Program-made: the position numbers and the translations under genes | Part shown: one piece after another, positions 3,638 to 25,853 of the stretch | How positions within the stretch are numbered: position 1 is the stretch's first letter | Layout: each line of letters begins with the position of its first letter | Notes under the pieces: generated by a model | Told to the model about the DNA's origin: nothing | The model's database searches: none | What the model saw: the letters and a program-made list of their open reading frames with translations, nothing else | NCBI GenBank assembly: GCA_012813795.1 | Contig: GCA_012813795.1_4087.1 | Strand: one strand, 5' to 3' | DNA length: 64,000 bases | Origin: a phage

Positions 3638-4330
3638 ATGTCTAATATTAATACTTCTTTTGAACGAATTAACGGTTATTCTTTTGACAAAATTCTAGGT
3701 TATTTCTGTGGTACTAACGCCCTAGCTTCTATCGCTGTTAGTAAACTAGGTGACGTTAACGTGCGTGTTACTGGTGCAGTTGGTTCTTTTGCTGGTCTAC
3801 AACGTTTTCTAAACACTGATATTCCTGAAGTTATTACCGAATATCTAAATGACAAAGGTATCATCCGTATCGACGGTACTCCATTCGAAGTTGCCACTGT
3901 TGAAGCTGATTACAATGCTTCCTACGCTGCTCAAACTAACGTTAAACGTCTAGTTGATGTTGTTCAACAACGTGCAGTTGTTCTAAGTACTTCTGAAATC
4001 GGTGGTAATGATGCTTCCGCTCCACTAGCAGTCGAAGGTTTCACTAACGCAGTTGATGGTGTACTAAGTGTTGGTACTGTTGATATTGCAAGTGCTTCTG
4101 TTGTTACTTTCCTAGTTGAGCGTGCGAACGTATTTGACAAAGACCTCGTATCTTTCCAAGGCGTTCCAAGTACTGAAATCGAAGAAGGTCGCCTACTTAT
4201 CGACGATCTAACTGGTATCCCAATGCTTGCAAAAGATGGCGTTACTGAAGTCTTCCTAAAATCCCAAGCTGCTGATGCTGCTGGTGATTTCGGTATCAAG
4301 ATGTTCAAATCTATCCCAGCAATGGTTTAA
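3638..4330 (+). CDS. hypothetical abundant late protein (paralog of 3023..3622)
   Basis: same codon bias; shared motifs QQRAVVLSTS and TFLVERANVFDKD; followed by a terminator. Confidence 0.8.
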   Translation: MSNINTSFERINGYSFDKILGYFCGTNALASIAVSKLGDVNVRVTGAVGSFAGLQRFLNTDIPEVITEYLNDKGIIRIDGTPFEVATVEADYNASYAAQTNVKRLVDVVQQRAVVLSTSEIGGNDASAPLAVEGFTNAVDGVLSVGTVDIASASVVTFLVERANVFDKDLVSFQGVPSTEIEEGRLLIDDLTGIPMLAKDGVTEVFLKSQAADAAGDFGIKMFKSIPAMV

Positions 4331-6950: not shown

Positions 6951-9900
6951 TTACCAAGAGAAGAAACCATTGTTAACTGCTGCTGTACTTTTCTCATGAA
7001 TACCAATATCCATATCGAGAATACCAAAGATGTTTTCTAATTTCTTAGTTAAAACTATCTCTTCCATTTTCTCACTATCAAACGGTAATTCTAAGAACCA
7101 TTCCGGTAGATACTCTACACAGTCAATTGGATATCCTACAGCTTTAATTCCCATTGGGTTATCTTTTAGATTACACACGATAACTTTTGTACCATCAGTA
7201 ACTTCTGGTACTGACTTGTCATCATACACTTCACGTAGACGGTTCCATTGAATACCTGCCAATACGTGTCCTACTTTACACTTACCAGTAGTGTTATATT
7301 CCGCTTCCAGATTAGTGTAGTTCTTAACTGTTCGCGGAGAACCTTTCTCGTGTACTGGAATGTCTTTAAATACCGCTTTAAAGTCACGTACACGCTGTTT
7401 TAGTTCTTCCTCTGACTCCCCTACCAGTAGGGCGATTAGAGTCTCTTCTAGGAAGTTCTGGATGTATTTTGGCGTATCTGAACGTTTAATCTCAAGACCC
7501 ATTGCCTTGATTTCACCAGGTTTACCATCAACATCTTTACGGAAACCATCTTCCCAGTACTTCAGAATTGCATAACGTTTCTTCTTCAGGAACAATCCAC
7601 GAGAACCTACCATCTCAAGGTCAGCACCTACAATCTTACCTTTCTCAATTCCAGTGTTGAACATCTGATGCATAAAAGATGGGAAGGACTCACCAACTTC
7701 ATCACCAATTTTAATGTACATATCAACAATTTCTTCTTTAGATAGATTGTACGGAATACCTTGTTCTTTCAAGTAATGGGTTACACTGAAGTATACGGAG
7801 TCAGTATCACCATAAATTACAGAACCACCCTGGTGATTGTAAACACCAGTTGTAATTTCATTGATACGACTCGCCATGTGTTTAGTCATAGAACGACCAG
7901 TTAAGGTAACAGACTGACCCAAACGCTTATCAAAGAAACGTGAACCTTTGTTCAATAGTGCACCATATAGACTGTTTAGAAGAATCTTACGAATCTGCTG
8001 GTTCTGTTTCCAGAATGCACTTTGTTGTTTGAAATATGCTTTATCTTCTTTAGAACAGAAAATTCTTCCGTCTTTTAGTTCTAAACCATTTTCAACAATT
8101 AGTTTAGCTACATCTTCCCATTGACCTTTACCAATTGCAATACGCAATAGATAAACAGGATCATTTTCATGTAAGTTGGTGCGGAACATTGTACCAGGAG
8201 TATAGTTGGATAGAAGTGGTTCTACTTTCTCATAACCATTAAATTCCCAACCATCACTATACATGTGTTTGTAATCAATTACCATCTTTTGTTGTGCTTT
8301 ACGTTCAGAATACCATTGAGTTAGAATGTCTGGAATTACACCATACTTAGACTTGTCAAATAGTGTTCCGTTAGCACTTAGAACAATAGTACTGTCCTCG
8401 GCAAAGATTATATCATACAACTCTTTACCTGTTGCCTGGAAAGAACTTCCATCTTCCAAATCAACAATGATTGTTTGATCTGATTTCTCATGAACCATTG
8501 TAAACTCAACAGCAGCAAACAAACCATGCCATGCAGCAGTCCAGTCTGGTTCGAACGATTTAGATTTTGATTTGGCCTTTTGCTCTTGAATTTTTGCAGC
8601 AAGATACGCATCAGTGTAATCCTGACGAAGTTGCCCAAGAATGCATTCAGTACTCATACCTAATGTACGAAGTACAGTTGGATACAGTGAGTTAAAGTCA
8701 GTACATCCCAAATCACTCACCAAACCTAGTACTGGATCTTGTACCCATGCACCAGCAGCTTTAGCACTAATTTTCTCATCTGCTTCATCATCTTCATCTT
8801 CATATGATTCTGTTTCATAATCAACTTCAAAATCATCTTTAGGTGCTTTGTTGAATACCACTTCACCACGACTATGTGCAAGGTTAATAATTGCAGTATC
8901 AATCAGAGCTACCGAACCCATTGTAGTACTAATTAGTACACACTCTTTATGAGCAAGACGGTTGTGCAGGTTGATAAAGTCACATACAGCATCAATTTTC
9001 TTCAGAAGAATACTATCCTGTTTAGAATAACGCAAGAATGTAATGTAATCTTCACGATATAGTTTATCCAAAGAACCTTCATAAGATACTTTATTCTCTT
9101 TAGTTACTTTCTCTGCAATGTAATCTAGTTTATATGATTGTTCAACTTGACCAGCATGTTTCTTATAAAGAGCAAGATAATCTAAGTGAACACGTCCAAC
9201 TAAATCATAGGTTACTACAGTTTTACCAAAGTTATCTGCTTCACGAGCATTAGGTTTCTTATTCCACAAGCACCAACGAGCAGTGGTTGCTTCATTGAAG
9301 ATTTTCTTTGTGCGGTTAATCATGTATGGAATATCAAAGAACTCACTATTCCACCCTGATAATACATCAGAATCATCAATAAGACTAAAGAATTCCATAA
9401 ACATTTCTTTTTCATCCGTATAAAGGATGACAGTACTGTTAGGATCATTTGTCTCTTCGTTCAAACGTCGAACAATGTCTTGTGCTTCGTAAATTTCCAT
9501 GTCAACTGGTGGTAGTGTTAAAACATAATCCTTACCAGTCCATGATTGATACAAAGAAATTGCTGTTACTCGGTTGAACGGATCTGATGGTGGTGCATAA
9601 CCAAACTTCTTATGGAAGTCGGTTTCGATATCGAAGAATGCAATATTAAGGTCAGGTGAACCATTACCCATGTATTCCTTCGCTAACGTTTTAAATGTAA
9701 TGTTACAGTCACTTTCAAAAATACGTAGACCTTCACTTTTGTGTTGTTCTACACTTTTGTTCATTTGAGCCTGTGAAGAAAACTCAAGATGTTGTGCCAT
9801 TGTACCATATACAGTTTTGTGTGTACCTAATGGTGATTCTACATAATACTCAAATACTGGCTCCAGTTCACGGAGAATACGCTTCCCGTTTTTACGTTCA

Positions 9901-14477: not shown

Positions 14478-15653
14478 TTACATGAAAGTAACGTTTTTGA
14501 TAGCGATTTTGCTGTAGTAGTCAGCAGCATTACCCAAACTTGAAGTTGAGTCAGTGAGTTGCACGTAGCCATAGCGTGTTAAAAATGTCGTGACCAATTC
14601 TCCAGTGTTAGGGTCCATTACAGTACCAGAAGCCATTAGTGGGATGTATGGGCAATAGAATACACCAGCATCAGTTTCTGCATTACCTTTATAACCAATT
14701 AGAATATCTTCTACATCTGAGGCGTAAGTATCGACAAATATACGCATGGTGCTGTTTAGAGTACCAACGAATTTAACGTTAGTTGGTGCTTCAAAAGTAC
14801 CTTCAGTAGTACGTGCAAAGCTGGAAGTAGTTGCAGACTGTAGAATGGTTAGAGCAGTTGGGGAAACAACAGCCCAGTTCGCAGCACCACGTTTGGTACG
14901 ACGAGCAACTTCGTTCGCTTGACGGTTGATTAGGGTAGCTAGAGCAGCGTGCTCATCACCTACGAAGGTTGCAACGCCAGTAACTTTAGATTGGTCATAA
15001 GTTACAGCAGCAGCACCAGGTAGTGCACGTAGACGGCTTAGTAGCTCTTGGTCGATTTCAACGGTAACTTCTTGAGCGATAGCAGCCATTAGTTCAGCTT
15101 CAACGTCGATACCATGTTGAGATTGTGCATCTTGTGCAGATTCAACAGTCCAACGTGCAGATAGACGACGAGATTTCGCTTCAACAGTTTCACGTAGGAT
15201 ACGGATGTTAACGCGACGACCCATAGTACCTTCTAGTTGGCTAGTAGGAGCAGCTTGTGGGTTACTGTTGTCAGAGTTTAGCTCACCAGTGTAAGATTTA
15301 GCAATCTTGAATGGAGATAGCATTTCTTCGCCAGCTACAACACCTGGTGCGTTGTCAGCGTATTGAACACGTAGAGTGTGGATTTGACCAACTGGGCCAG
15401 TCATTGGTTGAACACCGATGATTTCGTTAGCGATAACGGTTGGCATTACACGACGCATAATTGGTAGAATCACTTTGTTTAGAGTAGCGATGTTACCAGC
15501 AGAAGTTGCACCAGAGGTTGCAGATTCTTGTAGCATAACTTTGCGATGGTTATCAAGTACGGTTTCCATTACAGATTTACGAGTACCTTGAAGACCTTCA
15601 ACTAGTTTCTCTTTAACTGCTACCCATTTGGATTCATTTAGTAGTTGTGACAT
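14478..15653 (-). CDS. 23: major capsid protein (T4 gp23-like)
   Basis: IGVQPM, VEAKSRRL, GYKGNAETDAGVFYCPY align to T4 gp23; strong CTA/CGT/GGT bias. Confidence 0.9.
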   Translation of the reverse strand: MSQLLNESKWVAVKEKLVEGLQGTRKSVMETVLDNHRKVMLQESATSGATSAGNIATLNKVILPIMRRVMPTVIANEIIGVQPMTGPVGQIHTLRVQYADNAPGVVAGEEMLSPFKIAKSYTGELNSDNSNPQAAPTSQLEGTMGRRVNIRILRETVEAKSRRLSARWTVESAQDAQSQHGIDVEAELMAAIAQEVTVEIDQELLSRLRALPGAAAVTYDQSKVTGVATFVGDEHAALATLINRQANEVARRTKRGAANWAVVSPTALTILQSATTSSFARTTEGTFEAPTNVKFVGTLNSTMRIFVDTYASDVEDILIGYKGNAETDAGVFYCPYIPLMASGTVMDPNTGELVTTFLTRYGYVQLTDSTSSLGNAADYYSKIAIKNVTFM

Positions 15654-23400: not shown

Positions 23401-24288
23401 TTGCATGGAGAAAGTATTATGTCAATGAACCCGTTAGCAAAATACACAAAAATCGAAGAAATTAGTACTAAACTCGTCACTAACAACATTTTCCAGTACA
23501 AAGATGGTGTATTGGGGAGCAAAGGCATTAAATGTGGTGTCTGTGCTCGTAGTGCTCGTGACGAAATGATGCTCAATACACCTGATATGTTACTCAATGG
23601 TAGTGCAGTGTCATCTGTTATCGAAAACTGTGTACCAAACATTCTAAACGCAGAAGAGCTTTATGTCAATGACGTTGAGCAAATTCTTATTGCTATCAAG
23701 TTAGCATCCAAAGAAACCAGTTATGATATCAATGTCGTATGTCCATCCTGTTCAAAAGAAGGGCGTTTTGAACGTGACCTTTCTTATCTATTGGAAACGG
23801 CTGAATCTTTTACTGAAATTCCGAGTATTGATCTTATTAATGGTTTATCTCTCCAGTTTAGACCACTTACTTGGAAAGAATATTCAGAGTTTTCTCAACG
23901 TATGTTAGCTGAACAACAAAAAACTAAGTATCTTGAGAGTACTATTGATATTTCAGAAGATGATAAAATTAAAATGTTTTCTGAAGTATTTGAAAACATG
24001 GCACAACTAAACTTTGATATGATTGCTGGAGTTATTGATAAAGTAATTACTCCTGATGGTGATGAAGTATCAGATAAGAAATTCATAAGTGAATGGTTAG
24101 GTACTCAATCAAAAGAAGTGATCAAGCAAATCAGAGAGAAAATGGATGAAGTACTAGAAATTGGTGTATCACATACTATGGAAGTTGAATGTATTGAATG
24201 TCAGCATCAATGGGAACTTACTGGATTAAAGTATGACCCTACTCATTTTTTCGATCTCAGCTTCTCTTCTCAAACCCAGAAGAAATAA
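23401..24288 (+). CDS. zinc-finger protein (three CxxC pairs); possible C-terminal extension via -1 frameshift to 24466
   Basis: CGVC, CPSC, CIEC; T_TTT_TTC heptamer at 24246-24252; the -1 frame stays open for 63 codons beyond the 0-frame stop. Confidence 0.6.
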   Translation: MHGESIMSMNPLAKYTKIEEISTKLVTNNIFQYKDGVLGSKGIKCGVCARSARDEMMLNTPDMLLNGSAVSSVIENCVPNILNAEELYVNDVEQILIAIKLASKETSYDINVVCPSCSKEGRFERDLSYLLETAESFTEIPSIDLINGLSLQFRPLTWKEYSEFSQRMLAEQQKTKYLESTIDISEDDKIKMFSEVFENMAQLNFDMIAGVIDKVITPDGDEVSDKKFISEWLGTQSKEVIKQIREKMDEVLEIGVSHTMEVECIECQHQWELTGLKYDPTHFFDLSFSSQTQKK

Positions 24289-24478
24289 AAGAACTTCTGG
24301 ATGATATGGAGTTGAATAAATCAGATATTAAAAATGCCCTTATGGATGCTGCTGTTTATGTAGATAATGTCGATTATGCAACTCTACTTAATATGCCAGT
24401 AAATGACAGAGATATGCTTATTAAGGCATACAATAAGAAAGTAAAGAAGATGAACGAGAAGCACTAATACTCATAAGA

Positions 24479-24510
24479 AGCCAGCACATTGTTGCTGGTT
24501 TTTTTGTTTT
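24479..24510 (+). terminator. rho-independent terminator after the 23401 gene
   Basis: CCAGCA-cattgt-TGCTGG followed by a long T-run. Confidence 0.7.
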
Positions 24511-25361
24511 TGTTTTTTGGGTTTTTACTTACAAAGTAGATGAAAGAAATTATGATCTTAAAAGATTTATTCTTGAAGGAATTCATTTGATTTATATTGA
24601 ACTCATCTAACTCATTTCATTCGTTAGCTGAAGAATATTCGTTAACTACGTTAACTCATATTCATTTTAATATAATTATAAAGAACTTTAAATGATTTAA
24701 TACTTGACGGGATTTGTTGAGGATATTTCATCCCCCCGCAGGGGAATGAAGATAATAAAAAAGAGACAATTAAGTCTCTGTTTCTTGACGCTGATGGCAT
24801 CGGTATTATTGTATTGCGAATTTCTTAAAATTTAAACGTAATTATATTGTAAAAATATTAAGAACGAAAGCGGGTTGCTCTGTTTCTCTCTATCGCAGTC
24901 ATGTGCAACGGTCGTCAGTCTTAAACATCCTGACACTCACCTGAAAGTCTATACAATCAAACTTCAGGCTGTTTAATGAAATGAATCATCAAACTCCCTT
25001 AGCAAATCTGGTAAGGTGCGATCCTTATACATCTATCGAGGAACTCTCTGTATGCTTATCGGAGTTCTTTATTGAGCCGTGTCGCCGTGAGGGGTTCATA
25101 ATATGCCCACATCTAACGGGTTTCTTTTGCTCATCGCACTGTTGAACTGCTCATCTACCCTCTACATTTTCGAGTGGATTAGGTTCTAATTTATATGCAT
25201 TTCTGCATTCAACAGGATTGTCAGTACTACATAAAACATTATAGCACGCAATTTAAAAGTGTCTCAAAATATCTAATCTTTTTTATAAAAAAGTACTTAA
25301 AAATTTCTTAGGAATGTATTTCATAAATATTTCATAAACTAACTTAGATCTAAGGCACATT

Positions 25362-25853
25362 ATGAAACGAAGACTTAAAGATAGTAAGGAAGCTGCTACG
25401 TACAGAAATGAATTATTAAAAAAGCAAAAAGGTATTGATCCTATAATCAAAGAACCGATTAAGAAACCAGTACTCGACCACTATCACTTCGAAAACCAGC
25501 ATTGTAGAGAAGTTCTACAAAATGAGGTTAACGCATGGGAAGGTAAGGTGCAGAACTCTTTCAATCGATACTTGCGTCATTTAACTGATAAACCTCTTCA
25601 TGAAGTACTAAGAAATCTGGCAGATTATCTTGAAAAGAACAATAATATTCCACCAGAAGAGCAAGTGATTCATCACACGGCATTAACTGTGGATGTTAAT
25701 AAGTTTAAAAGGCTCCCAGCAACGCAGCAAAACGCGATTCTGGAAGGGTTAGGAGTTGTCCCTGGTAGCAACACTACTGCTCGTGTAAAACAGGCTAGGA
25801 AGCTTATTAAGGACGGCAAATTAAACATGTTAGATATAAAAAAAGGGAGCTAA
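25362..25853 (+). CDS. endonuclease VII (gp49)-like His-Me finger protein lacking the zinc-binding cysteines
   Basis: LDHYHFE...NEVNAWEGKVQNSFNRYL resembles T4 endo VII (LDHDHE...CNLCNAAEGQMKHKFNR). Confidence 0.45.
   Translation: MKRRLKDSKEAATYRNELLKKQKGIDPIIKEPIKKPVLDHYHFENQHCREVLQNEVNAWEGKVQNSFNRYLRHLTDKPLHEVLRNLADYLEKNNNIPPEEQVIHHTALTVDVNKFKRLPATQQNAILEGLGVVPGSNTTARVKQARKLIKDGKLNMLDIKKGS

Follow-up and report, generated by a model that had tools for sequence, protein, structure and literature searches.

Positions 24511 to 25361 of the window, the whole 64-kilobase (kb) stretch of phage DNA that was analysed, form a gap in which neither strand has an open reading frame (ORF) of at least 60 codons. 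The window derives from an Asteriusvirus jumbo phage, and the gap is 98.6% identical to Escherichia phage A4. It is proposed that the gap contains an independently transcribed gene on the minus strand for a large structured non-coding RNA (ncRNA), which would act in trans and is one of four ancient paralogues; the probability of this reading is put at about 0.7. The presence of a structured ncRNA is strongly supported by comparison of its copies, and its identity as a minus-strand RNA gene is predicted on the same grounds with high confidence. In our view, the unit is neither a leader nor an intron, and it does not code for protein.

The conserved unit occupies positions 24702 to 25267 of the minus strand and comprises a promoter, a two-domain RNA of ~476 nucleotides (nt), a terminator, a C4/G6 hairpin and a repeated box. 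A sequence-only reading of this DNA had described the gap as hairpin-rich and free of long ORFs, and had listed a structured ncRNA among the candidates. The absence of long ORFs was confirmed, the longest that touch the gap encoding 54, 49 and 55 amino acids (aa), and the ncRNA is borne out by covariation, a promoter, a terminator and the lack of a conserved frame. The core was also correctly perceived as GC-richer, with a GC content of 0.39–0.45 at 24850–25200 as compared with 0.22–0.31 at 24500–24750 and 0.23–0.29 at 25150–25400. The gap is indeed rich in hairpins, but the unit is narrower than the gap, the left 190 base pairs (bp) of which are a poorly conserved spacer. The minus-strand sense, the four paralogues and a clade-wide family that extends to bacterial islands had been missed.

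Covariation and architecture of the RNA

Members of the family were collected by scanning IMG/VR with two conserved patterns and running an nhmmer profile over the results, which gave 57 instances; a further 53 loci came from the GTDB genomes and the JGI/ENA metagenomes, each of which was scanned once. The alignment consists of 40 full-length copies that are <97% identical to each other. RNAalifold predicted 72 pairs from this alignment, 48 of them with compensatory double changes. A curated structure of 75 pairs in 17 helices was scored on the same 40 copies, and a standard pair is formed in 97.2% of the cells, as compared with 78.0% for shuffled partners and 38–44% for slid partners. Changes on both sides were found for 54 of the 75 pairs (38.8 and 17–25 with shuffled and slid partners, respectively), and the covariation score is 0.524 (0.178 and 0.06–0.10, respectively), a value reached by none of 500 shuffles. 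Comparative alignment had been suggested in the sequence-only reading as a check for covariation. The three hairpins named there are all present in the sequence and correspond, in the order of that reading, to the C4/G6 hairpin, the terminator hairpin and P8. In the 40 copies each of them is a helix of the same RNA that covaries or is conserved on one side, which is far beyond chance. The predicted transcript has a minimum free energy (MFE) z-score of -2.5.

The RNA body would consist of a 5' domain of six hairpins (P1–P6) and a 3' domain arranged around a P8–P9 pseudoknot, which encloses P10–P13 and is followed by P14 (Table 1). Helices of the 5' domain (1–8 of the curated set) are 83–100% paired, with both-side changes in most pairs. 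The GGGAG of the interdomain linker is retained in the short forms, i.e. relatives from distant phage contigs in which only the 3' domain can be aligned and the 5' domain has diverged beyond alignment. Helices of the 3' domain show compensatory changes in the island copies as well as in the short forms. The distal strand of P9 is located ~140 nt downstream of the P8 loop with which it pairs; since P8 and P9 both covary, the two helices together point to a pseudoknot. An interior pair of P12 is G.U in 38 of the 40 copies and A-U in the other two, and its plus-strand equivalent is an A.C mismatch. Pairs of P14 vary between C-G, U.G and A-U, and GACG/CGUC is swapped for UUCG/CGAA in the short forms.

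An optional module of ~30 nt, UACAAUAUAGAUCCGUCCAAA with an AAAUUU-type flanking stem, was recognised by eye on the tips of P7 and/or P13. It occurs in many copies, e.g. at 3975–3940 and 3815–3785 of the segment extracted from Serratia fonticola, and is missing elsewhere; the window copy has a degenerate version on P13 (24863–24823) only.

Transcription unit and strand

The top match of a promoter scan was TTGAGA-18-TATAAT on the minus strand, with 11 of 12 positions matching plus the TG of an extended -10 element. TATAAT is exact in 38 of the 40 non-redundant copies (TACAAT and TATACT in the others), and the TG is present in 39. The extended -10 element is found also in the island copies of E. 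coli and Serratia and in a divergent short-form copy. A -35-like element lies 16–18 nt upstream of the -10 element, its equivalents in other copies being TGGAACA, TGAAACG and GGGACA at the same distance, and conservation begins exactly at the -35 element. Transcription would start ~7 nt past the -10 element, and the 3' end is predicted at the close of the U-run of the terminator; a read-through form extending to ~24702 would be ~530 nt long. All four pairs of the terminator hairpin covary, and a run of U6–7 follows it in about 30 of the 40 copies. The terminator is missing from one paralogue group, from the islands of Serratia and of a metagenome-assembled genome (MAG), and from the short forms.

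Three independent lines of evidence, the promoter, the terminator and the positions of interior wobble pairs, point to the minus strand. The AGAGAC/GTCTCT hairpin has a trailing T-run on this strand only. Likewise, it is only on the minus strand that the interior wobbles are G.U, namely those of P12, of P11 (seven copies) and P14, and of the terminator and C/G hairpins; naive counts of G.U pairs are biased toward whichever strand the structure was predicted on.

A real RNA encoded on the plus strand is quite improbable. Such an RNA would have a slightly more stable fold (-130 as compared with -120 kcal/mol for the core consensus, and -117 as compared with -111 kcal/mol for the window copy), the -35-like hexamer TTGACG occurs twice on that strand, at 24704 and 24785, and in P13 and P6 the terminal pairs would become G.U. 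However, the TTGACG boxes are not followed by a conserved -10 element and are replaced by CTGACG in most genera and by CGAAG-type sequences in the short forms, and no terminator follows the unit in that direction. The interior wobbles listed above become A.C mismatches, and the plus-strand model of the P12 region contains 12 G.G mismatches. A plus-strand RNA was therefore rejected, in view of the promoter and terminator and of where the interior wobbles lie.

Even less probable is a repeat that acts at the DNA level without a functional RNA, such as a site of recombination, packaging or protein binding with hairpins that form in DNA. It would account for the multiple copies in the same orientation and for twin boxes that could be protein sites, and part of the element is marked as a 'repeat_region' in one GenBank record. 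A duplex DNA element accords poorly with the strand-specific tolerance of G.U pairs, the promoter, the terminator, the pseudoknot and helices that span ~150 nt, and conservation that starts precisely at a -35 element also argues against it.

Comparison with protein genes and known RNA families

Small protein genes had been considered in the sequence-only reading, as had a remnant of a group I intron. Together with other known types of RNA (tRNA, tmRNA) they now have a negligible probability. Plus-strand ORFs of 28–97 aa are present in most copies, and apart from the record with the repeat region, several GenBank entries place 3–5 small 'hypothetical proteins' in this element, and coding sequences (CDSs) are called here in PHANOTATE-based records. 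The frames are not conserved, however: one conserved block reads SGLLCFSLSQS, KAGCSVSLYRS or RKRVALFLSI, i.e. it falls in all three frames in different copies. A cluster of very small genes was rejected because no reading frame is conserved among the copies. The ORFs in the window gave no Pfam match.

The Rfam search that had been proposed as a check returned no family: with the 4,227 models of Rfam 15 there was no match at the gathering score in the 64-kb window, and at E≤10 only chance-level matches in 24300–25500. Island and short-form copies had no match at the gathering score and nothing, or chance-level matches, at E≤5. The ROOL and GOLLD models were absent from the permissive Rfam lists for the window, the island copies and the short forms. 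A group I intron remnant was rejected: Rfam gave no such match even at E≤10, the ORFs on both sides are complete and no host gene is interrupted, and the unit is equipped with a promoter and a terminator of its own. ARAGORN found no tRNA or tmRNA gene in the window, and these candidates were set aside as well. Two further resemblances seen by eye, of CUGANGA to a hammerhead and of ACAGAGCAACCCGCUU to RNase P, were discarded, as neither is accompanied by an Rfam match.

In the literature covered, including the PA5oct and RaK2 papers, a 2023 survey of structured RNAs in viruses and a 2026 review of jumbo phages, the element is not described. The RNA family is previously undescribed and has no detectable relative. 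Large phage-associated structured ncRNAs of unknown function are an established broad category, and the novelty lies in the family.

Paralogues in jumbo phages

In BLAST searches, 72 phage records spanning all Rak2-like jumbo phages contained the element, each genome at 2–5 places. Most of the related jumbo phages have it at 4–5 separate places and the Alcyoneusvirus group at two; the relatives include 121Q, PBECO4, GAP32, CBB, RaK2, K64-1, BF, fHe-Yen9, XbC2, Munch and 7t3, and the copies are mostly unannotated. A core of ~390 nt is 94–95% identical across Asteriusvirus genomes, as compared with ~80% for a 1.2-kb query that includes the flanks.

For the A4 genome, ~200 kb outside the window were examined. 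Four copies are present at ~65, 126, 206 and 321 kb of 355 kb, all in a single orientation and each in a gene-free gap of ~650–900 bp. Within the 64-kb window there is no second copy, as judged by local BLAST of the gap and by nhmmer, which gave a single match. A 49-aa 'hypothetical protein', A4_511, is annotated inside the second A4 copy and is probably spurious.

The paralogues group across genomes; for example, one group contains one copy each from BF, CBB, GAP32, XbC2 and fHe-Yen9-04. Hence, the duplications are older than these genera. In two metagenome contigs with short forms (8006–8860 and 1267–2121; 42–44% GC), the RNA adjoins a gene of the T4_baseplate family. As the window copy has a neighbour of the same family, this suggests that its position has been conserved over a long evolutionary distance.

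Copies in bacterial chromosomes

Full-length copies with the promoter, the helices and both boxes are also present in small AT-rich integrative elements of bacterial chromosomes. Among 5,426 complete E. coli genomes two carry a copy. That of E. coli LR-29-1 (NZ_AP027515.1, ~3,472,900–3,483,600) is located in an island of ~10.7 kb next to ffs, which further includes an integrase disrupted by IS3, a small resolvase and an mSLOG-DUF4326/DUF488/DuOB gene set. In S. fonticola (NZ_CP183218.1) the copy comes after a large serine recombinase and two ParB/RepB-like genes, with tilS as a neighbour, in Serratia sp. 2723 it directly follows a large serine recombinase, and in an Enterobacteriaceae MAG it is found between thiM and a CI-like repressor. 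Island and phage copies share only the unit from the promoter to box B, the flanks being unrelated, and the helices of the island copies are kept with compensatory changes. No plasmid was found to carry the RNA unit in a plasmid search.

Elements downstream of the terminator

Past the terminator, the C4/G6 hairpin is present in all copies. Its variation is from C to U only, with 52 G.U cells over five counted pairs and no A.C; thus, the C/G hairpin is fully paired on the minus strand only. Box B is located ~75 nt downstream of box A in the window copy. Both boxes ('CGUCAR') have the same variant within each copy, and five lineages were distinguished: CGTCAAG, CGTCAG, CTTCAAG, CGACAA and CGAAG. 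Such parallel change suggests either alternative pairing with the 5' arm of P14 or one common ligand of the two boxes.

These elements are central to the main rival explanation, itself unlikely and already named as a candidate in the sequence-only reading, in which the unit is a replication origin with a structured primer transcript in the style of ColE1 RNA II or the R-loops of T4 oriF and oriG. ColE1 RNA II is a promoter-driven structured primer of ~550 nt, and T4 has several origins. At such an origin the G-rich 3' region (C4/G6) would form a persistent hybrid near the AT-rich spacer, and boxes A and B would bind an initiator. A genome of 350 kb would then use its 2–5 copies as multiple origins, and an island would carry a copy so that an infecting phage amplifies it. 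The unit does resemble the ColE1 and T4 systems in its sigma-70-type promoter, a structured RNA of ~500 nt, a 3' G-run near AT-rich DNA and the presence of several loci. An origin would account for the dispersal of the same-orientation copies over the A4 genome, for the conservation of possibly untranscribed elements past the terminator (the invariant G-run and the iteron-like twin boxes that change in parallel), and for the AT-rich spacer with short repeats that adjoins the 3' end. The occurrence of the element on islands, in S. fonticola beside the two ParB/RepB-like genes, would also be expected of an origin.

On the other hand, about 30 of the 40 copies have a good intrinsic terminator ahead of the G-run, unlike the ColE1 and T4 origins, and no equivalent of the antisense RNA I was seen. 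More than 50 covarying pairs and a pseudoknot over ~450 nt exceed the constraint that a primer would need, and the origins of T4 are not a set of paralogous structured RNAs. Conservation of the AT-rich spacer does not extend to the paralogues, and no replication gene is seen on the E. coli island. Finally, the cumulative GC skew of A4 shows no inflection and is monotonic through the copies at 65, 126 and 321 kb; this is weak evidence, because the skew follows gene orientation here.

Possible roles of the RNA

The RNA would be transcribed by the host RNA polymerase early in infection and would act in trans as a folded molecule, i.e. as a protein-binding scaffold, a decoy or a self-assembling RNA. 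The setting of its action would be the conflict between phage, host and mobile elements. A trans-acting conflict RNA is our best guess, by analogy with other orphan large RNAs of phages.

Several points weigh against the proposed trans-acting gene. The label 'trans-acting conflict RNA' should be read as an analogy, neither a partner nor a phenotype having been connected with the RNA. The transcription start, the 3' end and expression are inferred from sequence for every family member, and a targeted literature search turned up no transcriptome work on Asteriusvirus or on phages close to it. Thermodynamics is ambiguous as to the strand, both in the RNAalifold energies and in the single-sequence MFEs. 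Although located past the terminator, the C/G hairpin and box B are conserved as strongly as the RNA body; hence, either read-through matters or these elements act at the DNA level. In addition, one paralogue group has a GC-rich hairpin and a run of 4–10 T immediately past TATAAT, ahead of the RNA body, which should terminate transcripts from that promoter. This hairpin was observed in the A4 65-kb copy (15096–15140 of the extracted segment) and in orthologues from six other sequences, and it may be the terminator of the upstream gene or an attenuator.

Few RNAs of bacteria and phages exceed 400 nt and have dozens of covarying pairs, and no function is assigned to several of the known classes. 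Like ROOL and GOLLD, the present RNA has its own gene, forms a multi-helix molecule of >400 nt and covaries extensively; it likewise occurs both in phages and in integrated elements and lacks a known partner or function. It differs from them in that no Rfam model matches it at E≤10, in its association with jumbo phages of Enterobacterales, in its 2–5 ancient paralogues and in the twin 3' boxes. It is also comparable to phi29 pRNA, adenovirus VA RNAs and the HSURs of herpesvirus saimiri in being a virus-encoded folded RNA, by analogy only. Those RNAs are expressed early and are trans-acting machine components or decoys, and the HSURs and VA RNAs form paralogous sets. The new RNA differs in size from phi29 pRNA (~174 nt) and VA RNA (~160 nt) and has no sequence or structural relation to them.

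A precedent exists in PA5oct of a related jumbo-phage clade, for which four putative long ncRNAs (lncRNAs) of 236–619 nt were defined by RNA sequencing in ORF-free gaps (Lood et al. 2020, PMC7318152). Like the window copy, ncRNA003 of PA5oct follows a TATAAT box and adjoins tail-associated and structural genes. In the GenBank record (MK797984, 103065–103668) the TATAAT is preceded by TGTAA just before the start, and the RNA lies beside a YomR-like gene; it ends near a GC hairpin and a T-run after ~300 nt, whereas the annotated feature has a length of 604 nt and extends over part of a small CDS. The four PA5oct lncRNAs are not alike each other, and neither nhmmer nor a motif search revealed similarity between them and the RNA family. 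Therefore, they serve as a precedent only, and homology is not supported.

A function that is indispensable to these 350-kb phages is suggested by four features: old duplications that gave paralogues at conserved positions, an early-type host promoter, transfer of the complete unit from the promoter to box B to islands, and conservation above that of the partly coding flanks. A more far-reaching reading can be offered tentatively. In it, the family would be a new class of ornate RNA of the rank of OLE, GOLLD and ROOL, with 2–5 specialised paralogues in every Rak2-like jumbo phage that are exchanged with islands. In conflicts between phage, host and mobile elements, the RNA would be a weapon or a replication element acting in cis or in trans, and the twin boxes would mediate a conformational switch, multimerisation or recognition by a dedicated protein.

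The family is present in the well-studied cultivable coliphages A4, 121Q, PBECO4 and phAPEC6, and also in jumbo phages of Klebsiella, Salmonella and Erwinia that are therapeutic candidates. As cultivable phages of E. coli and Klebsiella are among its carriers, the function of the RNA would be directly testable. Many GenBank records carry spurious 'hypothetical proteins' across these loci, and a covariance model of the family would correct 2–5 loci per genome in >70 phage genomes.

Feature coordinates and neighbouring genes

Table 1. Positions of the RNA gene, its structural elements and surrounding features in the window; positions of further copies refer to the A4 genome.
Feature	Position	Strand	Basis or remark
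-35-like element TTGAGAC	25261-25267	-	promoter scan
Extended -10 element TGCTATAAT	25238-25246	-	sigma-70 type, TGnTATAAT
Predicted primary transcript, ~476 nt	24756-25231	-	ends placed by promoter and terminator
5' domain, hairpins P1-P6	25012-25207	-	40-copy pair counts
P1	25207-25195	-	
P2	25182-25155	-	
P3	25150-25136	-	
P4	25133-25073	-	
P5	25067-25041	-	
P6	25027-25012	-	
Interdomain linker AAGGGAG	24994-25000	-	AAGGGA, six invariant columns in 40-copy alignment; last base mostly G
3' domain, universally conserved core	24787-24994	-	helices kept in islands and short forms
P7	24994-24971	-	
P8 hairpin, CCTGAAAGT/ACTTCAGG	24940-24969	-	96.6% paired; 3/3 pairs with both-side changes
P9 long-range helix	24957-24951 (P8 loop) with 24814-24808	-	99.6% paired; 6/7 pairs with both-side changes
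P10	24909-24898	-	
P11	24897-24893 with 24819-24815	-	
P12 hairpin, most conserved block of the family, GAGAGAAACAGAGCAACCCGCUUUC	24866-24890	-	100% paired
P13	24863-24823	-	
P14 hairpin GAUGC-CAUCA-GCGUC (24801-24787) with following AAGA	24783-24801	-	pair types covary
Box A, P14 3' arm and following AAGA	24783-24793	-	sequence repeat with box B
Intrinsic terminator, AGAGAC-UUAAUU-GUCUCU hairpin (24779-24762) and U-run (24761-24756)	24756-24779	-	terminator scan
C4/G6 hairpin UCAUUCCCC-UGC-GGGGGGAUG, 10 bp	24728-24749	-	present in all copies
Box B AAUCCCGUCAAGU, repeat of box A	24702-24714	-	3' edge of unit; parallel change
AT-rich spacer	24511-24701		22-31% GC; outside conserved family unit
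Terminator of left neighbour	24475-24504	+	12-bp stem, then T-run; strong terminator-like hairpin
ORF, 54 aa	24981-25145	+	among longest touching the gap
ORF, 49 aa	24651-24800	-	among longest touching the gap
ORF, 55 aa	25283-25450	-	among longest touching the gap; extends beyond 25361
Window copy in A4 (ON286972)	205.6-206.0 kb		
Further A4 copy	65156-65536		
Further A4 copy	125755-126203		
Further A4 copy	320997-321347		

To the left of the gap, the terminator hairpin noticed in the sequence-only reading closes a plus-strand gene pair (23401–24467), which consists of a baseplate-hub homologue, with a Pfam T4_baseplate match at 23419–24288, and a 53-aa ORF. To the right, the gene at 25362–25853, described in that reading as endonuclease VII-like, carries the annotation DNA endonuclease VII in A4, a near-identical phage. 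It matches Pfam Endonuclease_7 only weakly (E 0.0027, 18 bits; cut-off 23.6 bits), and hence this part of the description leans mainly on inherited annotation.

The spacer between the left terminator and box B is poorly conserved: conservation of 24511–24700 is seen within the genus only, and among the paralogues it stops at box B. The direct repeats AACTCAT (three times) and ATTCGTTARCT (twice) and several AT palindromes are present in this segment. In the A4 record the gap is flanked by the locus tags A4_1 and A4_591; thus, the gene numbering begins here, while the record coordinates do not.

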